Shown here piece after piece: positions 1,916 to 54,705 of a stretch of 64,000 nt of DNA. The notes under the pieces were generated by a model, which was given only the letters and a program-made list of their open reading frames with translations, did no database searches and was not told the origin of the DNA. The stretch is from Pristiophorus japonicus (Eukaryota): contig NW_027253183.1 of the NCBI RefSeq assembly GCF_044704955.1, positions 558,001 through 622,000 on the forward strand, read 5' to 3'. Numbering within the stretch: the first letter of the stretch is position 1; each line of letters begins with the position of its first letter. The position numbers and the translations under genes are program-made.

Positions 1916-2252
1916 CCTCCCCAGGTCTCCCTTTACCAGTTTCCATGATAGAATCAGACAGCACCGAAGGACACTGATTCGGCCCATTGTACCCGTGCCA
2001 ACGCCAGCCGGTGAATGAAAAGAAAAAGAACCTTCTCTTATATTGGTGAACTTGTTCAAATAAAAGACAGGGTTCACAACACAGGTTTTCCACATTTTGG
2101 ATCGGAATCAGTAACTGACTAACCGCACTGCTCCAGGATTGCAATCTTTGATCTCCGTCTAACTTGTACTGCCTGGACTGGCCCTTTAAATACCGGGGAC
2201 ACTTTGTAACCTTCAGACCGGTTTTTAAGTGATTGATATTTTACCATTAAAG

Positions 2253-2597
2253 GTGCAGTTGTCCCTGTCCTGACCCAGTCTCCGAGCCTGGAACTTGTCA
2301 CAGAGGGTCACACGGCACGGTTACAATGCACCATGTGGAACGCCAGAGTGAGTGACACCGATGTCCACTGGTACCGGCAACTCCTGGGGCAAGATATGGA
2401 GTGGGTTTTAACACATGAGGCAAGTGGCAGCACACGCGGGAGCCCAGGTTCCACTGACCATCTCCAGCCTTCCAGAGACACCTCCAATGACAGCTTCATT
2501 CTGACAGTCACAGAAGTGCAGCCCAGTGACACTGTCGCCTATTACTGTAAAGTGTGGGGCGATATCAGCGGGAACGGAACCCAGCTCAATGTAACCA
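2253..2597 (+). CDS. Intact Ig V-set exon with germline-fused J-like G strand (non-rearranging VJ domain)
   Basis: AG acceptor at 2251-2252 and GTAAAT donor at 2598, phase 1 at both ends. Translation AVVPVLTQSPSLELVTEGHTARLQCTMWNARVSDTDVHWYRQ...SFILTVTEVQPSDTVAYYCKVWGDISGNGTQLNVT has the B-strand Cys, WYRQ, DxxxYYC and GxGTxLxV; no stops. Confidence 0.92.
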
Positions 2598-2700
2598 GTA
2601 AATACAGTTTACATTATATTAACCTGAATAGAAGGAATAACCTCTTACACATGGATTTATTGATCAGTATCTGATTAATATCACAAAAACCGCTGGTAAA

Positions 2701-5499
2701 CTTAATGCAATAAGGTGGACGAATTAACTGCGCAGATAGATGTTAATGGATATGATGTAATTGAGATTACGGAGACATACTCCAGGGTGACCAAGGCTGG
2801 GAACTCAATATCCAGGGGTATTCAATATTCAGGAAGGATAGACAGGAAGGAAAAGGAGGTGGGGTAGCGTTACTGGTTAAAGAGGAGATTAACGCAATCG
2901 TAAGGAAGGACATTAACGTGGATGATGTGGAATCTATATGGTAGAGCTGCGAAGAACCAAAGGGCAGAAAACGTTCGTGGGAGTTGTGTACAGGCCATCA
3001 AACAATAGTATGGGGGTTGGGGATGGCATCAAACAGGAAATTAGGGACGCGTGCAATAAGGTTACAGCAGTTATCATGGGTGAATTTAATCTACATATTG
3101 ATTGGGCTAACCAAACTGGTAGCAATACTGTGGAGGAGGATTTCCTGGAGTGTATAAGGGACGGTTTTCTAGAACAATATGTCGAGGAACCAACAAGAGA
3201 GCAGGCCATCCTAGACTGGGTCTTGTGTAATGAGAGAGGATTAATTAGCAATCTGGTCGTGCGAGGCCCCTTGGGGAAGAGTGACCATAATATGGTAGAA
3301 TTCTTCATTAAGATGGAGAGTGACACAGTTAATTCAGAGACTAGGGTTCTGAACTTAAGGAAAGGAAACTTCGACGGTATGAGACGTGAATTGACTAGGA
3401 TAGACTGGCAACTGATGCTTAAAGGGTTGACGGTGGATAGGCAATGGCAGACATTTAAAGATCACATGGATGAACTACAACAATTGTACATCACAGTGTG
3501 GCGTAAAAATAAAGGGAAGGTGGCTCAGCCGTGGCTAACAAGGGAAATTAGGGAAAGTGTTAAATCCAAGGAAGAAGCATATAAATTGGCCAGAAAAAGC
3601 AGCAAACCTGAGGACTGGGAGAAATTTAGTATTCAGCAGAGGAGGACTAAGGGTTTAATTAGGAGGGGGAAAATAGGGTATGAGAGTAAGCTTGCAGGGA
3701 ACATAAAAACTGACTGCAGAGGCATCTACAGATATGTGAAGAGAAAAATATTAGTGAAGACTAATGTAGGTCTCTTGCAGTCAGAATCAGGGGAATCCAT
3801 AATGGGGAACAAGGAAATGGCAGACCAATTGAAAAAATACTTTGGTTCTGTCTTCACTAAGGAAGACACAAATAACCTCCCGAAAATACTATGGGACAGA
3901 GGGTCTAGCGAGAAGGGGGAACTGAGGGAAATCCTTATTAGTCAGGAAATGGTGTTAGGGAAATTGAAGGGACTGAAGGCCGATAAATCCCCAGGTCCTG
4001 ATAGTCTGCACTCCAGAGTACTTAAGGAAGTGGCTCTAGAAATAGAAGATGCATTGGTGGTCATTTTCCAACATTCCATGGACTCTGATTCAGTTCCTAT
4101 GGATTGGAGGGTAGCTAATGTAACACCACTTTTTAAAGAAGGAGGGAGAGAAAACAGGGAATTATAGACCGGTTAGCCTGACATCGGTGGTGGGGAAAAT
4201 GCTGGAATCAATTATTAAAGATGAAATAGCAGCGCATTTGGAAAGCAGTGACAGGATCGAACCAAGTCAGTATGGATTTATGAACGGGAAATCAAGCTTG
4301 ACAAATCTTCTCGAGCTTTTTGAGGATATAACTAGTAGAGTGGATAAGGGAGAATAAGTGGATGTGATGTATTTGGACTTTCAAAAGGCTTTTGACAATG
4401 TCCCACACAATAGACTAGTGTGCAAAATTAAGGCACATGGTATTGGGGGTAATATATTGACGTGGATAGAGATGTTGGCCGACAGGATGCAAAGAGTGGG
4501 AATAAACGGGTCCTTTTCAGAATGGCAGGCAGTGACTAGTGGGGTGCTGCAGGGTTCAATGCTGGGACCCCAGCTATTTACAATATACATTAATGACTTT
4601 GACGAAGGAATTGAATGTAATATCTCCATGTTTGCAGATGACACTAAGATGGGTGGCAGAGCGAGCTGCGAAGAGGATGCTAAGAGGCTGCAGGGGACTT
4701 GGACAGGTTAGGTGAATGGGCAAATGCAGTATAATGTGGATAAATGTGAGGTTATCCACTTTGGTGGCAAAAACAGGAAGGTAGATTATTATTTGAATGG
4801 TGACAGATTAGTAAAAGAGGAGGTACAATGAGACCTGGGTATCATGGTACATCAGTCTTTGAAGTTAGGCATGCAGGTACAGCAGACAGCAAAGAAAGCA
4901 AATGGCATGCTGGCCTTCATAGCAAGGGGATTTGAGTATAGGAGCAGAGAGGTCTTGCTGCAGTTCTACAGGACCTTGGTGAGACCACACCTTGAGTATT
5001 GTGTGCAGTTTTGGTCTCCTAATTTGAGGAACGTGCTTGCTATTGAGGGAGTGCAGCGAAGGGTCACCAGACTGATTCCCGGGATCCAGAAGAATGAGGG
5101 GAGAATCTCATAGAGGCATATAAAATTCTGACGGGACTAGTCAGGTTAGATGCAGGAAGAATGTTCCCAATGTTGGGGAAGTTCAGAACCAGGGGTCACA
5201 GTCTAAGGATAAGGGGTAAGCCATTTAGGACCGAGATGAGGAGAAACTTCTTCACTCAGAGAGTTGTTAACCTGTGGAATTCTCTACCACACAGAGTTGT
5301 TGATGCCAGTTCGTTAGATATATTCAAGAGGGAGTTAGATATGGCCCTAACTGCTAAAGGGGGTCAAGGGATATGGAGAGAAAGCAGGAAAGGGGTACTG
5401 AGGTGAATGATCAGCCAAGATCTTATTGAATGGTGGTACAGGCTCGAAGGGCCGAATGGCCTACTCCTGCACCTGTTTTCTATGTTTCTATGTTTCTAT
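2701..5499 (+). mobile_element. CR1 LINE, 5'-truncated, ORF2 (APE endonuclease + RT) with frameshifts
   Basis: VGVVYRPS, GKSDHNMV, KSPGPD, YLDFQKAFD, QGSMLGPQLF, FADDTK; 3' tail (TATGTTTC)n at ~5478-5499. Confidence 0.95.
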
Positions 5500-5520
5500 C
5501 ATTGCTCTGTTCCCTGTTAG

Positions 5521-5563
5521 GCATTGAAGGAATCGGATCAGTCCATATACAGTGAGCTTAAAG
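5521..5563 (+). CDS. Candidate cytoplasmic exon encoding the distal half of an ITAM (ALKESDQSIYSELK)
   Basis: Pyrimidine-rich acceptor CTCTGTTCCCTGTTAG and strong donor AAG|GTATGT; the phase-0 reading gives xL-x7-YxxL. Confidence 0.5.
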
Positions 5564-6007
5564 GTATGTTTCTCTCACACTTGGCAAGGGTAGAGGCAAA
5601 GCGTGTGATATCTGTCACTTTTTGTATAAATGGTGAAACTGTGGGAAACCTTCACCTAAAATGGATCCATAGCAGCAACACTGCCTGGAATAGACCGAGA
5701 GCAATGGGCCCAGTGTGGTAACGGGCCATCAGTAGCCCAGTACGGTGATGGATTGAATGTTGTGTGGTGATGAACAGCTTTTACTAAATCATTAACACCC
5801 ACAGCCGCACACACACAAATCCTCTCCTTTGTTCACACTGAGTATTGTAACCAGGTTAAAAGTAGCCAGCACATTTCATTTTCTGATTCAACATTTTCCA
5901 TTGGTTTCAAGGGTTAAGTAAATTATTGGCTCTGATGTTTTCCAACAAGAGCTATGTCACATTAATTCTGGGAAAACAGACCATAATAATCAAGGGAAAG
6001 CTACGTA

Positions 6008-9000
6008 TAGAATCATAGAAATTTACAGCATGGAAGGAGGTTATTTTGGCCCATCGTGTCCGCACCGGCCGACCAAGAGCTATCCAGCCTAACCCCACTT
6101 TCCAGCTCTTGGAACGTAGCCCTGTAGGTTACGGCACTTTAAGTGCACATACAAGTATTTTTTAAATGTGGTGAGGGTTCCTGCCTCTACCACTCTTTCA
6201 GGCAGAGAGTTTCAGATTCCCACTACCCTCTGGGTAAAGACATTTCCCCTAATATCTCCTCTAAACCTCCTCCCAATTACTTTAAATCTATGTCCCCTGG
6301 TTGTTAACCCCTCTGCAAAGGGAAACAGGTCCTTCCTATCTATTCTATCTAGGCCCCTCATAATTTTATACACCTCAATCAGGTCTCCCCTCAGCCTCCT
6401 CTGTTCCAAAGAAAACAGACCCAGCATCTCCAATTTTTCCTCAAAGCTAAAATTCTCCAGCCCAGGCAACATTCTTGTAAATCTCCTCTGCACCCTTTCC
6501 AGTGCAATCACATCTTTCATAGAAACATGGAAAATAGGTGCAGGAGTAGGCCACTTGGCCCTTCCAGCCTGCATCACCATTCAAAAAGATCATGGCTGAT
6601 CATTCACCTCAGTACCCCTTTCCTGCTTTCTCTCCATATCCCTTGATCCCTTTAGCCGTAAGGGCCAACTCCCTCTTGAATATATCTAACGAACTGGCAT
6701 CAACAACTCTGTGTGGTAGAGAATTCCACAGGTTAACAACTCTCTGAGTGAACAGATTTCTCCTCATCTCGGTCCTAAATGGCTTACCCCTTATCCTTAC
6801 TGTGACCCCTGGTTCTGGACTCCCCCAGCATCGGGAACATTCTTCCTGCATCTAACCTGTCCAGTCCCGTCAGAATTTTATATGTTTCTATGAGATCTCC
6901 TCTCATCTTTCTAAACTTCAGTGAATAGAGGCCCAGTCGATCCAGTCTCTCCTCATGTCAGTCCTGCCATCCCGGGAATCAGCCTGGTGAATCTTCGCTG
7001 CACTCCCTCAATAGCAAGAACATCCTTCCTCAGATTAGGAGACGAAAACTGAACACAATATTCCAGGTGAGGCCTCAACAAGGCCCTGTACAACTGCAGT
7101 AAGACCTCCCTGCTCCTATACTCAAATCCCCTCGCTATGAAAGCCAACATGCCATTTGCCTTCTTCACCACCTGCTGTACCTGCATGCCAACTTTCAATG
7201 ACTGATGTACCATGACACCCAAGTCTCGTTGCACCTTTTCCTAATCTGCCGCCATTCAGATAATATTCTGCTGTCATGTTTTTGCCACCAAAGTGGCTAA
7301 CCTCACATTTATCCACATTATACTGCATCTGCCATGCATTTTCCCACTCACCTAACCTGTCCAAGTCACCCTGCAGCCTCTTAGCATCCTCCTCACAGCT
7401 CACACCGCCACCCAGCTTAGTGTCATCTGCAAACTTGAAGATATTACTCTCAATTCCTTCATGTTAATCATTTATGTATATTGTAAATAGCTGGGGTCCC
7501 AGCACTGAACCCTGCAGCACCCCATTAGTCACTGCCTGCCTGTTCAGAAAAGGATCCGTTTATCCCGACTCTCTGCTTCATGTCTGCCAACCAGTTCTCT
7601 ATCCACGTTAATACATTACCCCAATACCATTTGCTCTAATTTTGCACATCAATCTCTTGTGTGGGACCTTGTCAAAAGCCTTTTGAAAGTCCAAATACAC
7701 CACATCCACTAGTTCTCCCTTCTCCACTCTACTAGTTACATCCTCAAAAAATTCCAGAAGATTTGTCAAGCATGATTTCCCTTTCATAAATCCATGCTGA
7801 CTTGGCCCGATCCTGTCACTACTTTCCAAATGTGCTGCTGTTTCATCTTTAATAATTGATTCCAACATTTTCCCCACTACTGATGTCAGGCTAACCGGTC
7901 TATAATTACCCATTTTCTCTCTCCTTTTTTAAAAAATGGTGTTACATTAGCTACCCTCCTTTCCTGTAATGGGGTGACAGAACTGCACACAGTACTCCAG
8001 CTGCGGCCTAACCTGTGCTTTTACAGTTCAAGCATAACCTCCTAGCTCTTGTATTCCATGCCTCGACTAACAAAGGCAAGTATTCTCTCTGCCTTCTTAA
8101 CCACCTTATCTACCTGGCCTACTACCTTTAGGGATCTGTGGACCTGCATTCCAAGGTCCCTTTGTTCCTCTACACTTTTCAGTGTCGTACCAGTTACTGT
8201 GTATTCCCTTGCCTTGTTAGACCTCCCCAAATGCATTACCTCACACTTATCCGGATTGAATCCATTTTCCACTGTTCCAACCGCCTGACCAGTACATTGA
8301 TATCGCCTTGCAATCCGCAGCTTGCTTCTTCATTATCAACCACACAGCCTATTTTAGTGTCATCTACAAACCTCTTAATCATACCCCCAACATTCAAGAC
8401 CAAGTCATTGATATATACCACAAAAAGCAAGGGATCCAGCACTAAGCCCTGCGGACCCCTACTGGAAACAGCCTTCCAGGCACAAAAACACCCATCAACC
8501 ATTACCCATTGCTTCCTGCCCATGAGCCAATTTTGGATACAACTTGCCACTTTGCCCTGGATCCCATGGGCTTTTACTTTCGTGACCAGTCTGTCATGTG
8601 GGATCGTATGAAAAACGTTGCTAAAATCCATATACACTATATCATACACACCGTCCTCTTTGACCCTCCTTGTTACCTCCTCAAAAAATTCAATCAAGTT
8701 AGTCAGACATGACCTTCCCTTAACCAATTTGTGCTGACTATCCTTGATTAATCCATGTCTTTCCAAATGAAGATTTATCATGTCCCTCAGGATTTTTCCC
8801 ACCACTGAGGTAAGACTGACTGGCCTGTAATTACTTGGTCTATCCATTTCTCCCTTTTTAAACAAAGGTACAACATCAGTAGTCCTCCCAGTCCTCTGGT
8901 ACCACACCTGTAGCCAGAGAGGATTGGAAAATGATGGTCAGAGCCTCTGCTATTTCTTCTTTTGCTTCTCTTAACAGGGATACATTTCATCCGGGCCTGG

Positions 9001-12410: not shown

Positions 12411-12540
12411 ACACAATCCTGAGACCTACCAGTCTGTATGGCTCAGATATGCCCGGGATAAACTCAATGTCTGAATTGTCACATTTTACACGAGATTACT
12501 GCAGATAACTGTTTTTAATTTTGTTCAAAACAGGCAATAT

Positions 12541-18835: not shown

Positions 18836-19385
18836 CCCCGCCCCGCCCCGCTCACTGCCTCCTCCAGCCCACTGCCGCCACACACTCCCCCCCCCCCGCA
18901 CCACCTCGGCCCCTGGAGCCCACTCCCCCCTAACCCCATCCATCCATCCCCCGCCCGGGTCCGCCCCCCGCTCACTGCAGGCCGGCCCCGGCCCCGGCCC
19001 TCAGCCTCTCCCCGCCCGCCCCCCGCTCACTGCAGGCCCTTCCCGGCCCTCAGCCTCTCCCCACCCGCCCCCCGCTCACTACAGGCCCTTCCCGGCCCTC
19101 AGCCTCTCCCCGCCCGCCCCCCCGCTCACTGCAGGCCGGCCCCGGCCCCGGCCCTCAGCCTCTCCCCGCCCGCCCCCCCGCTCACTGCAGGCCGGCCCCG
19201 GCCCCGGCCCTCAGCCTCTCCCCGCCCGCCCCCCGCTCACTGCAGGCCGGCCCCGGCCCTCAGCCTCTCCCCGCCCGCCCCCCCCGCTCACTGCAGGCCG
19301 GCCCCGGCCCTCAGCCTCTCCCCGCCCGCCCCCCCGCTCACTGCAGGCCGGCCCCGGCCCTCAGCCTCTCCCCACCCGCCTCCGG
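18836..19385. repeat. GC-rich minisatellite, ~40-47-bp unit (CCCCGCTCACTGCAGGCCGGCCCCGGCCCTCAGCCTCTCCCCGCCCG)
   Basis: About 10 visible tandem copies; an inverted partial copy at ~18700-18770. Confidence 0.9.
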
Positions 19386-25994: not shown

Positions 25995-26351
25995 GTCTAA
26001 AGGCAAGTCCGGTTCTTATCCAGTCCCCAGAAGTTGTGACGATGCTCGAAGATGGGATGGTGTAGTTTCGCTGTGCCCTGGAGAGCAGCAATGTGAATGA
26101 CCGTGTGGATAAATATACTGTACACTGGTACCACCCATCAATTGGGAAAAGCAAACCTTTATTGACTCTTTCTGTAGCTGGCGAGGTTTAACAAAACAAT
26201 GGCTTCTTTAAACAGTTTGAGCTTTCCAGAGATGTTTCCATTAACAGCTACATTCTGACCATCAGAGGCGTGCAGCACAGAGACAGCACTGTCTATATTT
26301 GTGGTATTTGGGGAACAATCTATGGAAATGGAACCCGGCTGAATGTAACCG
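25995..26351 (+). pseudogene. Pseudogenised Ig V-set exon with fused J-like strand, paralog of 2253-2597
   Basis: LKASPVLIQSPEVVTMLEDGMV*FRCALE...VHWYH...GEV*...SRDVSINSYILTIRGVQHRDSTVYICGIWGTIYGNGTRLNVT; stops TAG 26063-26065 and TAA 26189-26191; acceptor CAG changed to CGG; donor G|GTAAGT intact. Confidence 0.9.
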
Positions 26352-29191: not shown

Positions 29192-30411
29192 AGATCCACC
29201 TCTGGGCAGGTACCCCTCCAGATCCACCTCTGGCCAGGAGCCCCTCCAGGTCCACCTCTGGCCATGAGCCCCTCCAGATCCACCTCTGGCCATGAGCCCC
29301 TCCAGATCCACCTCTGGCCATGAGCCCCTCCAGACCCACCTCTGGGCAGGTACCCCTCCAGATCCACCTCTGGCCATGAGCCCCTCCAGATCCACCTCTG
29401 GGCAGGTACCCCTCCAGATCCACCTCTGGCCATGAGCCCCTCCAGATCCACCTCTGGGCAGGTACCCCTCCAGATCCACCTCTGGGCAGGTACCCCTCCA
29501 GACCCACCTCTGGGCAGGTACCCCTCCAGATCCACCTCTGGCCAGGAGCCCCTCCAGGTCCACCTCTGGCCAGGAGCCCCTCCAGGTCCACCTCTGGCCA
29601 GGAGCCCCTCCAGGTCCACCTCTGGCCAGGAGCCCCTCCAGGTCCACCTCTGGCCAGGAGCCCCTCCAGGTCCACCTCTGGCCAGGAGCCCCTCCAGGTC
29701 CACCTCTGGCCAGGAGCCCCTCCAGGTCCACCTCTGGCCAGGAGCCCCTCCAGGTCCACCTCTGGCCAGGAGCCCCTCCAGGTCCACCTCTGGCCAGGAG
29801 CCCCTCCAGGTCCACCTCTGGCCAGGAGCCCCTCCAGGTCCACCTCTGGCCAGGAGCCCCTCCAGGTCCACCTCTGGCCAGGAGCCCCTCCAGGTCCACC
29901 TCTGGCCAGGAGCCCCTCCAGGTCCACCTCTGGCCAGGAGCCCCTCCAGGTCCACCTCTGGCCAGGTGCCCCTCCAGGTCCACCTCTGGCCAGGAGCCCC
30001 TCCAGGTCCACCTCTGGCCAGGAGCCCCTCCAGACCCACCTCTGGCCAGGAGCCCCTCCAGACCCACCTCTGGCCAGGAGCCCCTCCAGACCCACCTCTG
30101 GCCAGGAGCCCCTCCAGACCCACCTCTGGGCAGGAGCCCCTCCAGACCCACCTCTGGGCAGGAGCCCCTCCAGACCCACCTCTGGGCAGGAGCCCCTCCA
30201 GACCCACCTCTGGCCAGGAGCCCCTCCAGACCCACCTCTGGCCAGGAGCCCCTCCAGACCCACCTCTGGCCAGGAGCCCCTCCAGACCCACCTCTGGCCA
30301 GGAGCCCCTCCAGACCCACCTCTGGCCAGGAGCCCCTCCAGACCCACCTCTGGCCAGGAGCCCCTCCAGACCCACCTCTGGCCAGGAGCCCCTCCAGACC
30401 CACCTCTGGCC
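29192..30411. repeat. 28-bp minisatellite (GGCCAGGAGCCCCTCCAGGTCCACCTCT), ~43 copies
   Basis: Direct tandem repetition with blocks of variant units. Confidence 0.97.
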
Positions 30412-31903: not shown

Positions 31904-32131
31904 TGGCCCTCCAGGTCCACCCCTGGCCAGGAGCCCCTCCAGGTCCACCCCTGGCCAGGAGCCCCTCCAGGTCCACCCCTGGCCAGGAGCCCCTCCAGGT
32001 CCACCCCTGGCCAGGTGCCCCTCCAGGTCCACCCCTGGCCAGGTGCCCCTCCAGGTCCACCCCTGGCCAGGTGCCCCTCCAGGTCCACCCCTGGCCAGGT
32101 GCCCCTCCAGGTCCACCTCCGGCCAGGAGCC
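31904..32131. repeat. Continuation of the 28-bp minisatellite (~8 copies, CCACCCCT variant)
   Basis: Same unit as 29192-30411. Confidence 0.95.
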
Positions 32132-32985
32132 TCTCCGGGCATCTACTGTGGAGGCAGCGCGAAGGAATTGCAGAGCATGTCAATGGCAGGAATATTGCAC
32201 CCAGATCGTGGCTACAATGCCGGAAGACATTTAATGATCTACCTGGAGTTGTTAAGATACGAACACTGATCTCATCCCTGCTCACAGCTGCACCACCTCA
32301 CAGCACCCAAGTCCCTTCCATAAGTTCCCTTCATTCTCCTACACTCACTAAACCATACTTCACTGCTTCTCCTTCTCATACTCAGACACTCATCACGGGT
32401 ACAACCCTGACTTGCCCACAACTCACATCTCACACACTCATTATCAGCTATTCCACCATGACCACCACATGTTCCTCAAGTCTCTCACTAACATGACACT
32501 GTTTTCTTGCAGAAGGTGGTCACACACAACTCAAGACAGCAACTGTCACCGGAGGAGGCACAGTCCACCTGCACACTCTCCTTCCCCGCCCTTGAAGAAA
32601 ACGTGCTTGCCATCAGGGGCGGGAGAGAGTTGATGTCGAGGCAACTGGCAGAGGTTGGGGCAACTGGAGGTGACGTTGCACAGGGTGTCTTCACACCTCA
32701 TTCTCTCTGTCCCTTCTGACCTCTCTCACCACTCTCACTGCAAGCTTCAGATACTTTCAGCACTTCTCTCTCTCGGCACTCCATTCTCACCACAGGCTAA
32801 CCCTTGTTTCTCTCTCTCCATTTTAGGTCATGATAATGGAGAAGAGGAGTATAGGCAGAGGAGGCCAGCCTTCCGGAAGATGCAGTCACAGGCACCAACT
32901 CAGATACTGGTATCATGCGGATCTTATAGGCTTGATTAGAGTAGATGTCTACACGCGGTGACACACAGGGCACAAATGCTCAGCG
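32120..32985 (+). mobile_element. Harbinger-associated Myb/SANT-like gene remnant
   Basis: EGIAEHVNGRNIAPRSWLQCRKTFNDL followed by intron-like pyrimidine-rich sequence. Confidence 0.65.
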
Positions 32986-49768: not shown

Positions 49769-49820
49769 ATGTTTGGCCCGAGGCTCACAGCCGTGACTCT
49801 GACCCTCTGTGTCGCAGTGG
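49769..49820 (+). CDS. Signal-peptide (leader) exon MFGPRLTAVTLTLCVAV-G
   Basis: ATG, a basic residue, a hydrophobic core, 52 nt, and a phase-1 consensus donor G|GTAAGT; joins in frame to a VJ exon of the 25995 type (..VAV-G-LKA-SPVLIQSP). Confidence 0.7.
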
Positions 49821-50215: not shown

Positions 50216-53200
50216 TATTATAAAGAGTCTGACTGGATACTGTGAGCTCAAAGTAAAGTGTGACCTTAGTCTTTTATTGCAGGTCTCCAGTGTGCATCTC
50301 CGGCCTGTTCGGCTTCCTTAAGTACCTGTGCTCCCAAGGGATTGTGGGATCCCTTGGGACTCCAGGAGATGAGCCCTCTGGTGGTTGTACGAGGTATATA
50401 CAAGTTCACATATATCACAACACTCTTTCTCCCCTCCCGCCCCCCCATAGTCAACATTGTAACTATTTACAAGGTGAGTCGATCTGGGGCCTTACTTTCC
50501 CTGGTTGATCGTGTCGGTACAAATGCTGGTTTTGGTGAATCGTTTGTTGGGCCCTCGCTGGGCTGCTGTGCAGTTGGCCTTGCTGGGCTGCCTGGTGTGG
50601 TGAGTCCTGCTGGGCTGCTGCGGGTGATGGGTTCTGCTTCGTGGCCAACCGCGGTGTCGGTCGTCGCTGGTGTGTATGTTGGGGGTCAAAGAAGGTAGGG
50701 TCCAAGGTGGATTGCTCGGGATAGTCCGTGAATCTGAGTTTGATTTGGTCCAAGTGTTTCCGGTGAATGAGTCCATTGTAAAGTTTGACCCAAAACACCC
50801 TGCTCCCCTCTTTGGCCACAATGGTGCCAGGAAGCCACTTGGAAACTTGTCCATAATTCAATACAAACACAGGATCATTGATTTCAATTTCGCGTGACAC
50901 ATTTGCGCTGTCATGATATGCACTTTGTTGAAGCCGGCTGCTCTCTACCTGTTCATGTAGATCAGGGTGAACTAACGAGAGCCTTGTCTTTTCATGAGCA
51001 GTTCAGCAGGTGGGATCCCAGTGAGCGAGTGGGGTCTCGTGCGGTAGCTAAGCAGGACTCGGGATAGGCGAGTCTGCAGTGAGCCTTCAGTTACCCTCTT
51101 CAAACCCTGCCTGATGGTTTGCACTGCTCGCTCTGCCTGACCATTGGATGCTGGTTTGAACGGGGCAGATGTAACATGTTTAATCCTGTTACGGGTCATG
51201 AACTCTTTGAACTCGGCACTGGTAAAACATGGCCCGTTGTCGCTCACAAGGACATCAGGTAGTCCGTGCGTGGCAAACATGGCCCGCAGGCTTTCAGTGG
51301 TATCTCACATTCAATCCGTTTGGAGTACGCATCTACAACCACAAGGAACATCTTACCCAAAAACGGGCCTGCATAGTCGACATGGAACCTGGACCACGGT
51401 TTGGAGGGCCAAGACCATAAACTTAGTGGTGCCTCCCTGGGGGCATTGCTTAACTGTGAGCATGTGTTACATTTGTGCACACAGGACTCTTAAGTCCGCA
51501 TCGATACCGGGCCACCACACGTGGGATCTGGCTATCGCTTTTATCATTACGATGCCTGGATGGGTACTGTGGAAGTCACTGCTGAAAGTGTGTCTGCCTT
51601 TTTTGGGGACCACTACCCGATTGCCCCACAGAAGGCAGTCTGCCTGTTTAGACATTTCATCTTTGCGCCGCTGGTGCGGCTTTATCTCTTCCTGCATTTC
51701 CACTGGGACACTGGACCAGTTCCCGTGAAGCACACAATTTTTTACTAGGGACAGTAAGGGGTCATGGCTTGTCCAGGTTCTAATCTGTCGGGCTGTGACT
51801 ATTGTTCACTCTCGAATGCTTCCATAACCATGACTAAATCTGTGGGCTGAGCCATTTCCACCCCGTGGTGGGCAACGGCAGCCTACTGAGAGCATCGGTA
51901 CAATTTTCTGTGCCTGGCCTGTGGCGGATGGCGTAGTTGTGAGCGCGCATCTCTGGATGCGGGCTCATGCATTCGTATTTATCCCCTTACTCTCGGAAAA
52001 CAGGGATATTAGTGGCTTATGATCAGTTTCCAATTCAAATTTTAGCCCAAACAGATATTGATGCATTTTCTTTACCCCATAAACACACGCTAACGTTTCC
52101 TTTTCAGTCATGTTGTAGGCGCTCTCAGCCTTAGACAGACTTCTGGATGCATAAGCAACTGGTTGCAATTTCCCAAAATCATTAGCTTGTTGCAATACAC
52201 ACCCGACACCATACGACGACACATCACATGTTAGTACCAAACGCTTACATGGATCATACGACACAAGCAATTTGTTTGAGCATAACAATCTTCTAGCTTT
52301 TACAAAGGCATTTTCTTGGCTTTTTCCCCATACCCATTCATCTCCTTTATACAGTAAGGTGTGCAGTGGTTCTAACAGTGTGCTGAGACCTGGTAAGAAG
52401 TTACCAAAATAGTTCAGGAGTCCTAGACACGACCACAGCTCCGTCACGTTCTGTGGCCTCAGTGCGTTCTCGATTGCCTCCGTCTTCGAATCGGTGGGCC
52501 TGATGCCGTCTGTCGCGATTCTTTTCCCCAGGAACTCCACTTCAGGCACCGGGAAAATGCACTTTGAGCGTTTTAACCTGAGCCCCATGCGGTTGAGTCG
52601 ACTAAGAACCTCCAGGTTCTGCAGATGCCCACTTGTGTCCTGACCTGTACCCAAGATGTCGTCCTGGAAAACCACTGTGCATGGGACCGAATTCAGTAAG
52701 CTTTCCATGTTTCTCTGGAATATCGCCGCCGCTGATCGAATTCCAAACGGACATCTGTTGTAAATGAAGAGACCTTTGTGCGTGTTGATGCAGGTGAGGC
52801 CCTTTGATGATTCCTCCAGCTCCTGCATCATGTAGGCTGAGGTCAACTCCAGCTTCATGAACGTCTTTCCTCCTGCCAGCATAGCAAAATGGTCATCAGC
52901 CTTTGGTAGTGGGTATTGATCCTGCAGGGAGAAACGATTGAAAGTTACTTTGTAATCACCACAGATTCTGACGGTGCCGTCTTCCTTGAGGATTGGAACA
53001 ATCGGACTGGCCCAATCATTGAATTCAATCGGCGAAATTATGCCCTCTCTTTGCAGCCGGTCCAGCTCGATCTCTATCCTTTCATCATGTACGGTACTGC
53101 TCTCGCCTTGTGATGGATGGGTCGCGCCCCCGGAATTAGGTGGATCTGCACTTTTGCTCCTTGAACTTCCCGATGCCTGGTTCGAACAGCGAAGGGAACT

Positions 53201-54705
53201 TGTTTAAGACCTGGGCACACGAAGTGTCATCAGCGGACAAGAGCACTCGGACGTCGTCCCAGTTCCAGCGTATCTTTCCCAGCCAGCTCCTGCTGAGCAG
53301 CGTGGGACCATCGCCCGGTACAACCCAAAGTGGTAGGTTGTGCACCACTCCATCATAGGAGATCTTTACTGTAGCACTGCCGATTACTTGAATCAGTTCC
53401 TTTGGATAAGTTCTCAGTTTCGTGCGAATGGGAGTCAAGACTGGCCTTGAGGCCTTGCTGCACCACAATTTTTCTAAAGTCTTTTTGCTCATAATGGACT
53501 GGCTCATGCTCGTGTCCAACTCCATTGACACCGGGAGTCCTTTAGTTCAACCTTCAGCATTATCGGGGGACACATTGTGGTAAAAGTGTACACCCCATAT
53601 ACCTCTGCCTCCTCGGTCTGAGGCTCTGGTTCGTCGTGATCTGCCCTCCTCTGCAACATGGTGGTTTGCAGGATTAACAGGGTTTGCAACTTGCCTACAC
53701 TTACATTGGAGGTGTCCCATTGTTCCACAGCCCTTACAAACGTACCCTTTGAAGTGGCATGAATGGAAACGATGATCACCTCCGCAGCGCCAACAAGGTG
53801 TTAATGGCCTTGCATTCATTACCCTTGATGGTGGACTCAGAGACATCTGCGGATGTGCAGCTGCAGGCATGTGGGGCCTGCCCTGTACGTTGCGATTTGA
53901 AAACAACATTACTTTGTTCACAGTACTTGTAGCAGCACTCGTGTGCTGAGAGATTTGCTTAGTATTGTCACTGGTGGCAATGAACACCTGGACTAACGCT
54001 ATGGCCTTACTCAAGGTTGGGGTCTCCACAGTCAAAAGTTTGCGAAGTATCACTTCATATCACTTGTATCACTTCAAGTCTCTGAGCATGTGCTCCAAAT
54101 GTCCTTCAAATTCACAATGTCCTGCAAGGCGTCTTAGCTCGGCAACATAACTCGCTACTTCCTGGCCTTCAGACCTTTTGTAGGTGTAGAACCGGTACCT
54201 CGCCATCAGAACGTTTTCATTCGGGTTCAGATGCTTCCGGACCAATGTGCATAAATCATCATACAATTTCTCTGTGGGTTTCGCTGGAGCAAGCAGATTT
54301 TTCATGAGGCCATACGTTGGTGCCCCGCAAACAGTGAGGAGAATTGCTCTTCGTTTGGCAGTGTTCGCTTCTCCTTCCAGCTCGTTGGCCACGAAATATT
54401 GGTCGAGTCGCTCCACGGAGGTTTCCCAATCATCTCCCTCCGAGAATTTCTACAGGGTGCCCACTGTTGCTGGCATCATTGGGTTTGTCATCTGTAACTC
54501 GTCGCCAGTTATTATGTATGAATAAAGAGTCTGACTGGTTACTGTGAGCTCAAAGTAAAGTGTGACCGTAGTCTTTTATTGCAGGTCTCCAGCGTGCCTC
54601 TCCAGCCTGTGAGGCCCCCTTAAGTGATTGTGGGATCCTTTGGGACTCCAGGGGATGAGCCCTCTGGTGGTTGTACAAGGTATATACAAGTTTACATATA
54701 TAACA
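50216..54705 (-). mobile_element. Full-length but decayed Gypsy (Mag-like) LTR retrotransposon
   Basis: LTRs 54510-54705 and 50216-50419; PBS TGGCGACGAG; purine tract at ~50420-50447; gag CCHC, protease LDTS, RT FQDD, RNase H ETDHKPL, integrase VSDNGP; TSD GAGGA/GAGGG. Confidence 0.95.

Follow-up and report, generated by a model that had tools for sequence, protein, structure and literature searches.

We conclude with high confidence that the exon at positions 2253 to 2597 (plus strand) of the window, the 64,000-nucleotide stretch of Pristiophorus japonicus DNA analyzed here (G000:C2571:558001-622000; genome size, 5.9 Gb), codes for one (V2, the second) of several pre-joined V-J domains in a non-rearranging receptor family of cartilaginous fish, that members of this family are likely paired inhibitory and activating sensors, and that the window's own copy is likely a pseudogene. 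The family is apparently undescribed: a full-text literature search, of main texts largely outside subscription journals, listed no paper on it. Database entries for its members carry the labels IGSF3-like, pIgR-like, SIRP-like, and Ig heavy chain-like, and these are mislabels. Its members constitute a conserved, expressed, multicopy set of single-exon VJ genes. According to the excerpted text of PMC12227049, such genes are sought as witnesses of antigen-receptor origins.

The V2 exon and its receptor family

The V2 exon is 345 nt long, open throughout, in phase 1 at both ends (frame 2 of 2201-2700), and matches the Pfam V-set domain (E=1.9e-14). An acceptor AG at 2251-2252 and a donor GT at 2598-2599 fix its limits at 2253 and 2597. 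The sequence-only reading had extended the exon to 2625; its start holds, but positions 2598 to 2625, which the open reading frame enters past the donor, are intron, and RNA contigs leave at 2597. The motifs described in that reading (QSPS, Cys, WYRQ, SRDTS, and YYC, followed by KVWGDIS and GNGTQLNVT) all lie in a single open frame. Comparison with relatives showed that features noted in this one domain are shared: the very short CDR3 has the same length in 241 of 242 family domains parsed (from 310 extracted), Ser replaces the J Phe/Trp in 94 of 123 V2-type domains, and 100 of the 123 carry the NGT sequon, which has been lost in 10 of the 25 P. japonicus V2 copies outside the deleted class described below. 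The window's V2 differs from the family majority by eight amino acid replacements. Searches of PDB by sequence and by fold returned only antibody V domains, with no shark receptor and no UrIg2 among the matches listed.

The absence of a recombination signal sequence (RSS) was also borne out: when both strands of the entire 64-kb window were scanned, no RSS-like element was found near the V2 exon, and the sole RSS-like site in the window is a weak one on the minus strand at 5643, with a spacer of 11, 3 kb from the exon. A scan of both strands for V domains found no other credible one in the window apart from one broken copy.

Several lines of evidence place V2 inside a multi-V receptor, as had been proposed. 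The preceding phase-1 V exon (V1) was found 17 kb upstream, outside the window, at G000:C2571:543051-543399. Database models of relatives are ordered leader-V1-V2-(V3, V2...)-TM-tail, where TM is the membrane-anchor exon. RNA contigs from four coded runs were aligned to window positions 2100 to 2700, and the spliced contigs of relatives break off exactly at the two predicted junctions. Before 2253, the loose ends of X9 and X10 contigs are the end of a V1 exon; past 2597, the loose end is the start of V3 in an X10 contig and the TM exon in X1 and X5 contigs. At no fewer than 12 positions these contigs depart from the window sequence, always toward the family majority (all 12 positions at which X9 and X10 differ carry the majority letter), and they thus demonstrate expression of paralogues and not of the window's copy.

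The family as a whole has a leader, two to four or more pre-joined V-J exons, a membrane anchor, and a tail with ITIM/ITSM or ITAM motifs. At least 41 V2 exons that are full length, stop free, and at least 88% identical were present among the 150 genome matches listed, and further classes of match at ∼50% and ∼45% identity represent two other domain types, V3 and V1. Protein searches recovered 109 longer relatives, of which the named ones come from sharks and rays and the closest (89 to 93% identical) are P. japonicus models; chimaera members were also named among the matches. By pattern, 30 of 108 longer relatives have ITIM- plus ITSM-like tails and 22 have ITAM tails. P0044 and P0061 end in a tail with ITIM- and ITSM-like motifs and P0066 in YxxL-x7-YxxL, an ITAM, yet their ectodomains are nearly identical; such opposite tails behind matching ectodomains in one cluster are what identify paired receptors. 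The TM segment of P0066 contains no charged residue, and the ectodomains of all models inspected consist of two-Cys V domains. The genome matches listed include 18 sites with one ITIM-type TM exon and 4 sites with the ITAM-type exon.

Placed copies lie at C9:0.65-6.25 Mb. None was placed on the contigs that carry the MHC class I cluster (C19), PBX (C8, C20, C24, and C1847), or the IgH V genes (C23), in a linkage check that covered two marker families only. Unplaced contigs may be haplotigs, as illustrated by C3782, a twin of the window region that is 99.88% identical over 22 kb, so the copy numbers given here should be read as upper limits for a single haploid set, although they count only the matches listed. 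Separately, nine near-identical MHC class I alpha1-alpha2 matches were found at G000:C3:316.6-319.3 Mb, away from the C19 cluster; each is uninterrupted in an open frame of 419 to 777 codons, and they look like intronless copies.

Lesions of the window's copy and of its class

The V2 exon had been called intact, which is true of the exon but not of the gene copy, which is broken outside it. The V1 partner exon upstream of the window carries a one-base insertion (349 nt, one more than its intact counterpart), and splicing it to V2 would be out of frame, with a stop inside V2. All 17 truncated V1 exons that could be parsed (from a set of 18), including that on the twin contig, carry the same extra T, which is therefore inherited rather than a sequencing error. 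Downstream of V2, a LINE retroelement, presumably of the CR1 type, occupies 2707 to 5490 (plus strand), the place taken in intact genes by V3, the membrane exon, and two cytoplasmic exons. Its extent is indicated by an endonuclease-reverse transcriptase Pfam match at 2926-4164 and by a gap in similarity to an intact ITAM gene on C3961, which stops at about 2615, some 18 bases past V2, and restarts at 5491. No match to the TM exon or to the two cytoplasmic exons was found in the window. What is left of the tail is an orphan cytoplasmic exon with the second half of the ITAM (5521 to 5563, plus strand; a relative's contig splices to these ends) and a remnant of the terminal exon's acceptor region (12482 to 12539, plus strand). 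In the latter, only the first few bases of the exon still show similarity, and the exon is interrupted near 12540.

No leader for this copy was found within 60 kb upstream, and the nearest is 285 kb off, beyond another gene. The family leader exon inside the window (49769 to 49820, plus strand) lies downstream of the V2 exon and cannot serve it. Another leader with identical coding sequence lies 16.5 kb past that one, ahead of the next intact V1. In view of these lesions the copy is likely a pseudogene, and in itself it matters little.

The broken V domain elsewhere in the window is a second V1-type exon at 25995 to 26351 (plus strand), a separate decayed unit with two stops and an acceptor changed from AG to GG; five copies of this class were present among the genome matches listed. 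Beyond the receptor units, the window contains an open reading frame with reverse transcriptase and RNase H domains of LTR-retrotransposon type (51965-53203, minus strand), other long open reading frames that are pieces of LINEs, and GC-rich minisatellites with units of 28 and 49 bp (29192-30411, 31907-32136, and 18988-19380).

The combination of frameshift and deletion is common to 18 copies. Among the matches listed, the last ITAM exon occurs in 25 places, of which 4 are behind a TM exon, 2 on C9 are unassigned, and 19 have no TM match; 18 of these 19 TM-less units follow a truncated V1 exon, when paired by coordinates. We propose that a unit such as the window's lost its leader, V3, anchor, and most of its tail, that its V1 gained a frameshift, and that the unit would then have been multiplied by segmental duplication. 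The one TM-less unit with intact V1 and V2 exons (L112 and L086, at G000:C3248:219703-203519, minus strand) has no leader in the 40 kb upstream.

Might these units instead be alive, with the broken V1 skipped and V2 spliced to the orphan exon to give a soluble decoy? A leader-V2-last exon splice would yield a short secreted protein with an early stop 11 residues into the orphan exon, and NITRs, themselves a paired-receptor family, include secreted forms in the excerpt available of PMC2442602. The state of V2 agrees with this idea in that all 12 ungapped deleted-class copies examined keep their splice sites and reading frame and that pN/pS is alike in the two classes (0.61 in 12 deleted-class copies versus 0.64 in 25 others; Fisher p=1.0; L092 was left out as gapped and three loci as duplicates). 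The class has, moreover, been amplified some 19 times, and one unit (L112) retains an intact V1. Nonetheless, none of 18 deleted-class units has a leader within 60 kb upstream, versus 16 of 29 intact V1 exons (p=7e-5), a difference to be read with the fact that the search, which listed leader exons in 32 places, misses some (the other 13 intact V1 exons had none within 60 kb, partly because of contig ends). The terminal exon is interrupted, and 7 of 19 units have a V2 exon that is split or gapped. Amino acid changes per V2 copy are more numerous in the deleted class (p=0.0004). Over 5491-6008, X9 and X5 contigs splice the preceding cytoplasmic exon and the terminal exon of intact genes to 5521-5563, completing the ITAM, and none joins V2 to 5521, although contigs cannot prove absence. 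We therefore regard a soluble decoy as improbable.

Likely function and comparison with known receptors

The intact members would be type I membrane proteins in which a distal, loop-variable V1 binds ligand and V2 and V3 act as glycosylated, unpaired spacers. The 26 intact V1 exons all differ, with a mean pairwise identity of 87%, versus 97% for V2 (25 exons). Nonsynonymous and synonymous changes in V1 number 46 and 8 in the loops versus 32 and 18 in the framework (Fisher p=0.022), and the loop pN/pS of 1.54 is not significantly above neutral (p=0.32). The near constancy of V2, set against the loop variation of the distal V1, makes a spacer role likely for V2. The J Phe is the residue on which V-V dimers pack, and the Ser found there, together with the adjacent sequon, is best read as belonging to an unpaired domain. 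The structure prediction that had been suggested for the window's domain was run on the intact paralogue P0066; AF2 gave two confident V folds, one TM helix (residues 255-282), and a disordered tail, with a low overall pTM of 0.45. Its fold matches were antibody fragments, with scFv-type entries superposing at an rmsd of 13 to 20 Å, and the model therefore predicts no Fv-like pairing. ITIM/ITSM motifs recruit SHP-1/2 and ITAMs recruit Syk/ZAP-70, and the tails of this family are predicted from their motifs to do the same. The family likely works as a set of paired inhibitory and activating immune sensors, and its members are candidates for the NK/myeloid paired receptors that are still missing from sharks.

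In one family member, the J segment has been copied in tandem about 200 times into a predicted glycosylated stalk. The V2 exon of this gene (L133-L134; G000:C9:4433058-4442226, minus strand) has lost its donor and reads on for 3,056 codons with 206 N-glycan sequons. The extension contains ∼199 unit starts, with 190 of 198 spacings equal to 14 residues. Its majority unit matches the CDR3-J segment of its own exon in register at 27 of 42 bases. The best match to any other part of the V exon is 19 bases, and 2,000 shuffles gave no more than 24. Ray P0083 (1,999 aa, with TM) and bamboo shark P0110 have sequon-rich stalks at the same place.

In its manner of working the family resembles the NITRs of bony fish, which, in the excerpt of PMC2442602, are likewise multigene, non-rearranging V receptors with a J-like end in inhibitory (ITIM) and activating forms. 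By analogy, NITRs are what the family works like. It lacks the six-cysteine I domain of NITRs, has two to four or more V domains, and, where NITRs rely on a charged TM residue, has activating members that carry their own ITAM (in the 22 models counted above). The rows that we take to be NITR-like share only ∼27% V identity with it. NITR membership was rejected, there being no I-type second domain in the models inspected and the activating models having an ITAM.

The closest V framework is that of Ig light chain sigma-2 (type I, NS5, or sigma-cart), in which V and J are germline-joined in several lineages, going by the portion of PMC5985310 that was available. Unlike sigma-2, the family has no C1 domain, has tandem V domains, a TM segment, a signaling tail, and a fixed short CDR3, carries Ser, Tyr, or Phe at the J Phe position, and lies on a contig different from those of IgH and the other light chains. 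Light-chain membership was rejected, given that neither the window nor the family models contain a CL C1 exon, splice partners are V or TM exons, and Ser (in the 94 V2-type domains noted above) breaks the FGxG J motif. A rearranging IgL or TCR V segment was rejected because no RSS follows V or precedes J.

Other families show narrower likenesses. CTLA-4 has a GxG motif in its G strand, and in this respect the CD28/CTLA-4 family resembles the GNGTQ of the V2 domain. SIRPs, which contain C1 domains, are paired activating and inhibitory Ig receptors like the present family, as are CD300/pIgR-like receptors. Skate MDIRs are a further such case, from cartilaginous fish, and are set apart by their description in the excerpt of PMC3031540, with CD300/TREM/pIgR-like rather than antigen-receptor-like domains. 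CD28-family proteins have a single V domain, proline-rich CDR3 motifs, and conserved synteny (PMC11599192, as excerpted), and membership was rejected because none of those CDR3 motifs occurs in the family's domain. UrIg/UrIg2, PRARP, and NKp30 share the single-exon V plus J without RSS; unlike the family, they have one VJ domain, mostly C1 domains, and linkage to the MHC or antigen-receptor complexes in the available parts of PMC12227049 and PMC10751288. UrIg/PRARP-type membership was rejected, as the family is all V, with no C1 after a single VJ, is multicopy, and has its placed copies on C9.

Origin of the VJ domain

The resemblance to IgL or TCR V domains that had been read from the motifs holds for IgL, whose sigma-2 is the nearest antigen-receptor V, and fails for TCR. 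Over V-segment columns, the window's domain is 44% identical on average (48% at most) to sigma-2 V, and an intact paralogue reaches 52%. Joined VJ-C1 genes follow at 37 to 38%, as does a light-chain-like group that was left unclassified, and the averages for sigma, kappa, lambda, IgH, TCR, and NITR-like rows are 26 to 31%. The basis of the sigma-2 label is a record named Igsigma-2 in the P0147 cluster; the remaining row labels were assigned from motifs and are presumed, and own-genome rows were checked for RSS and C1 exons. In a 114-row tree built from an alignment of only 98 columns, the family forms one clade (99/94) within a group that includes sigma-2 and the VJ-C1 genes (85/82). AU tests on 62 of the 114 rows (30 family and 22 other rows having been dropped) reject only the grouping of the family with all TCR V (p=0.037); placements with sigma-2 (p=0.45), with lambda/kappa (p=0.11), with IgH (p=0.065), and outside all rearranging V (p=0.36) are not rejected.

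The history that we favor, at about even odds and from sequence comparison, is that an antibody light-chain VJ exon joined by RAG was fixed in the germ line of the ancestor of all cartilaginous fish and rebuilt into a large family of innate ITIM/ITAM paired receptors, its J being reused some 200 times in the stalk of one member whose outline is conserved in ray and bamboo shark. A germline-joined, sigma-2-like exon would have had its junction trimmed, been duplicated in tandem, and been put on signaling exons before sharks and chimaeras split. The uniform CDR3 length points to one ancestral junction. If this origin is right, the family shows traffic from adaptive to innate immunity and cautions against taking every unsplit VJ exon for an ancient relic; an antibody exon put to use in innate sensors would supply the direct example that Lee et al. 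2000 called lacking. The excerpt of PMC2193156 holds that an Ig gene, once rejoined, could turn into a new kind of receptor, with "no direct example" at that time.

In the opposite history, which appears somewhat less likely, though it is a serious contender, the family's VJ domain was never split: it would descend directly from the exon into which the RAG transposon jumped, like those of UrIg, PRARP, and NKp30, and sigma-2 would be no more than a slowly evolving relative. The position outside all rearranging V that the AU test does not reject would fit this history, as would the joined VJ-C1 genes in the nearest group and sigma-2 itself being joined in gar, turtle, and coelacanth (PMC5985310, in the same excerpt). 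However, the best trees nest the family among antigen-receptor V domains near sigma-2, named matches to the family come only from cartilaginous fish, and the placed copies are on C9 and not on C19 (MHC class I), the PBX contigs, or C23 (IgH), unlike UrIg/UrIg2 as the available text of PMC12227049 describes them. Joining of light-chain V to J, moreover, is known to take place in shark germ cells (PMC2193156, as excerpted). RSS-flanked split V and J homologues, which the sequence-only reading had named as evidence for a germline-joined segment, were absent among the own-genome V exons examined; this absence is not fully decisive, and an ancient germline-joined origin remains the favored history. 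It is extremely unlikely that the exon simply belongs to an ordinary shark minicluster, as a light-chain or TCR gene joined in the germ line. Its framework is closest to sigma-2, and this genome does contain germline-joined lambda clusters (C8), but neither the window nor any family model contains a C1 exon, no split leader precedes the V2 exon, the J Phe is absent, and the transcript neighbors are other V exons or the TM exon, which refutes this explanation.

When a shark sigma-2 V was used as the query, nothing closer than this family (51%) and nothing above 52% was found among the 150 scored of 794 genome candidates; sigma-2 loci may be absent from the assembly, lost, or unscored. Two other V genes on the IgH contig were observed. 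L031 (G000:C23:8901841-8902170, minus strand) is a single-exon VJ gene without RSS that groups (100/99) with the shark VJ-C1 proteins P0166, P0191, and P0202 and may be sigma-2-related, PRARP-like, or something else. L032 (G000:C23:3514017-3514310, plus strand) is a light-chain-like V with a 12-spacer RSS that falls outside the sigma, sigma-2, kappa, and lambda clades and lies loosely near the caecilian and turtle chains P0217 and P0236.
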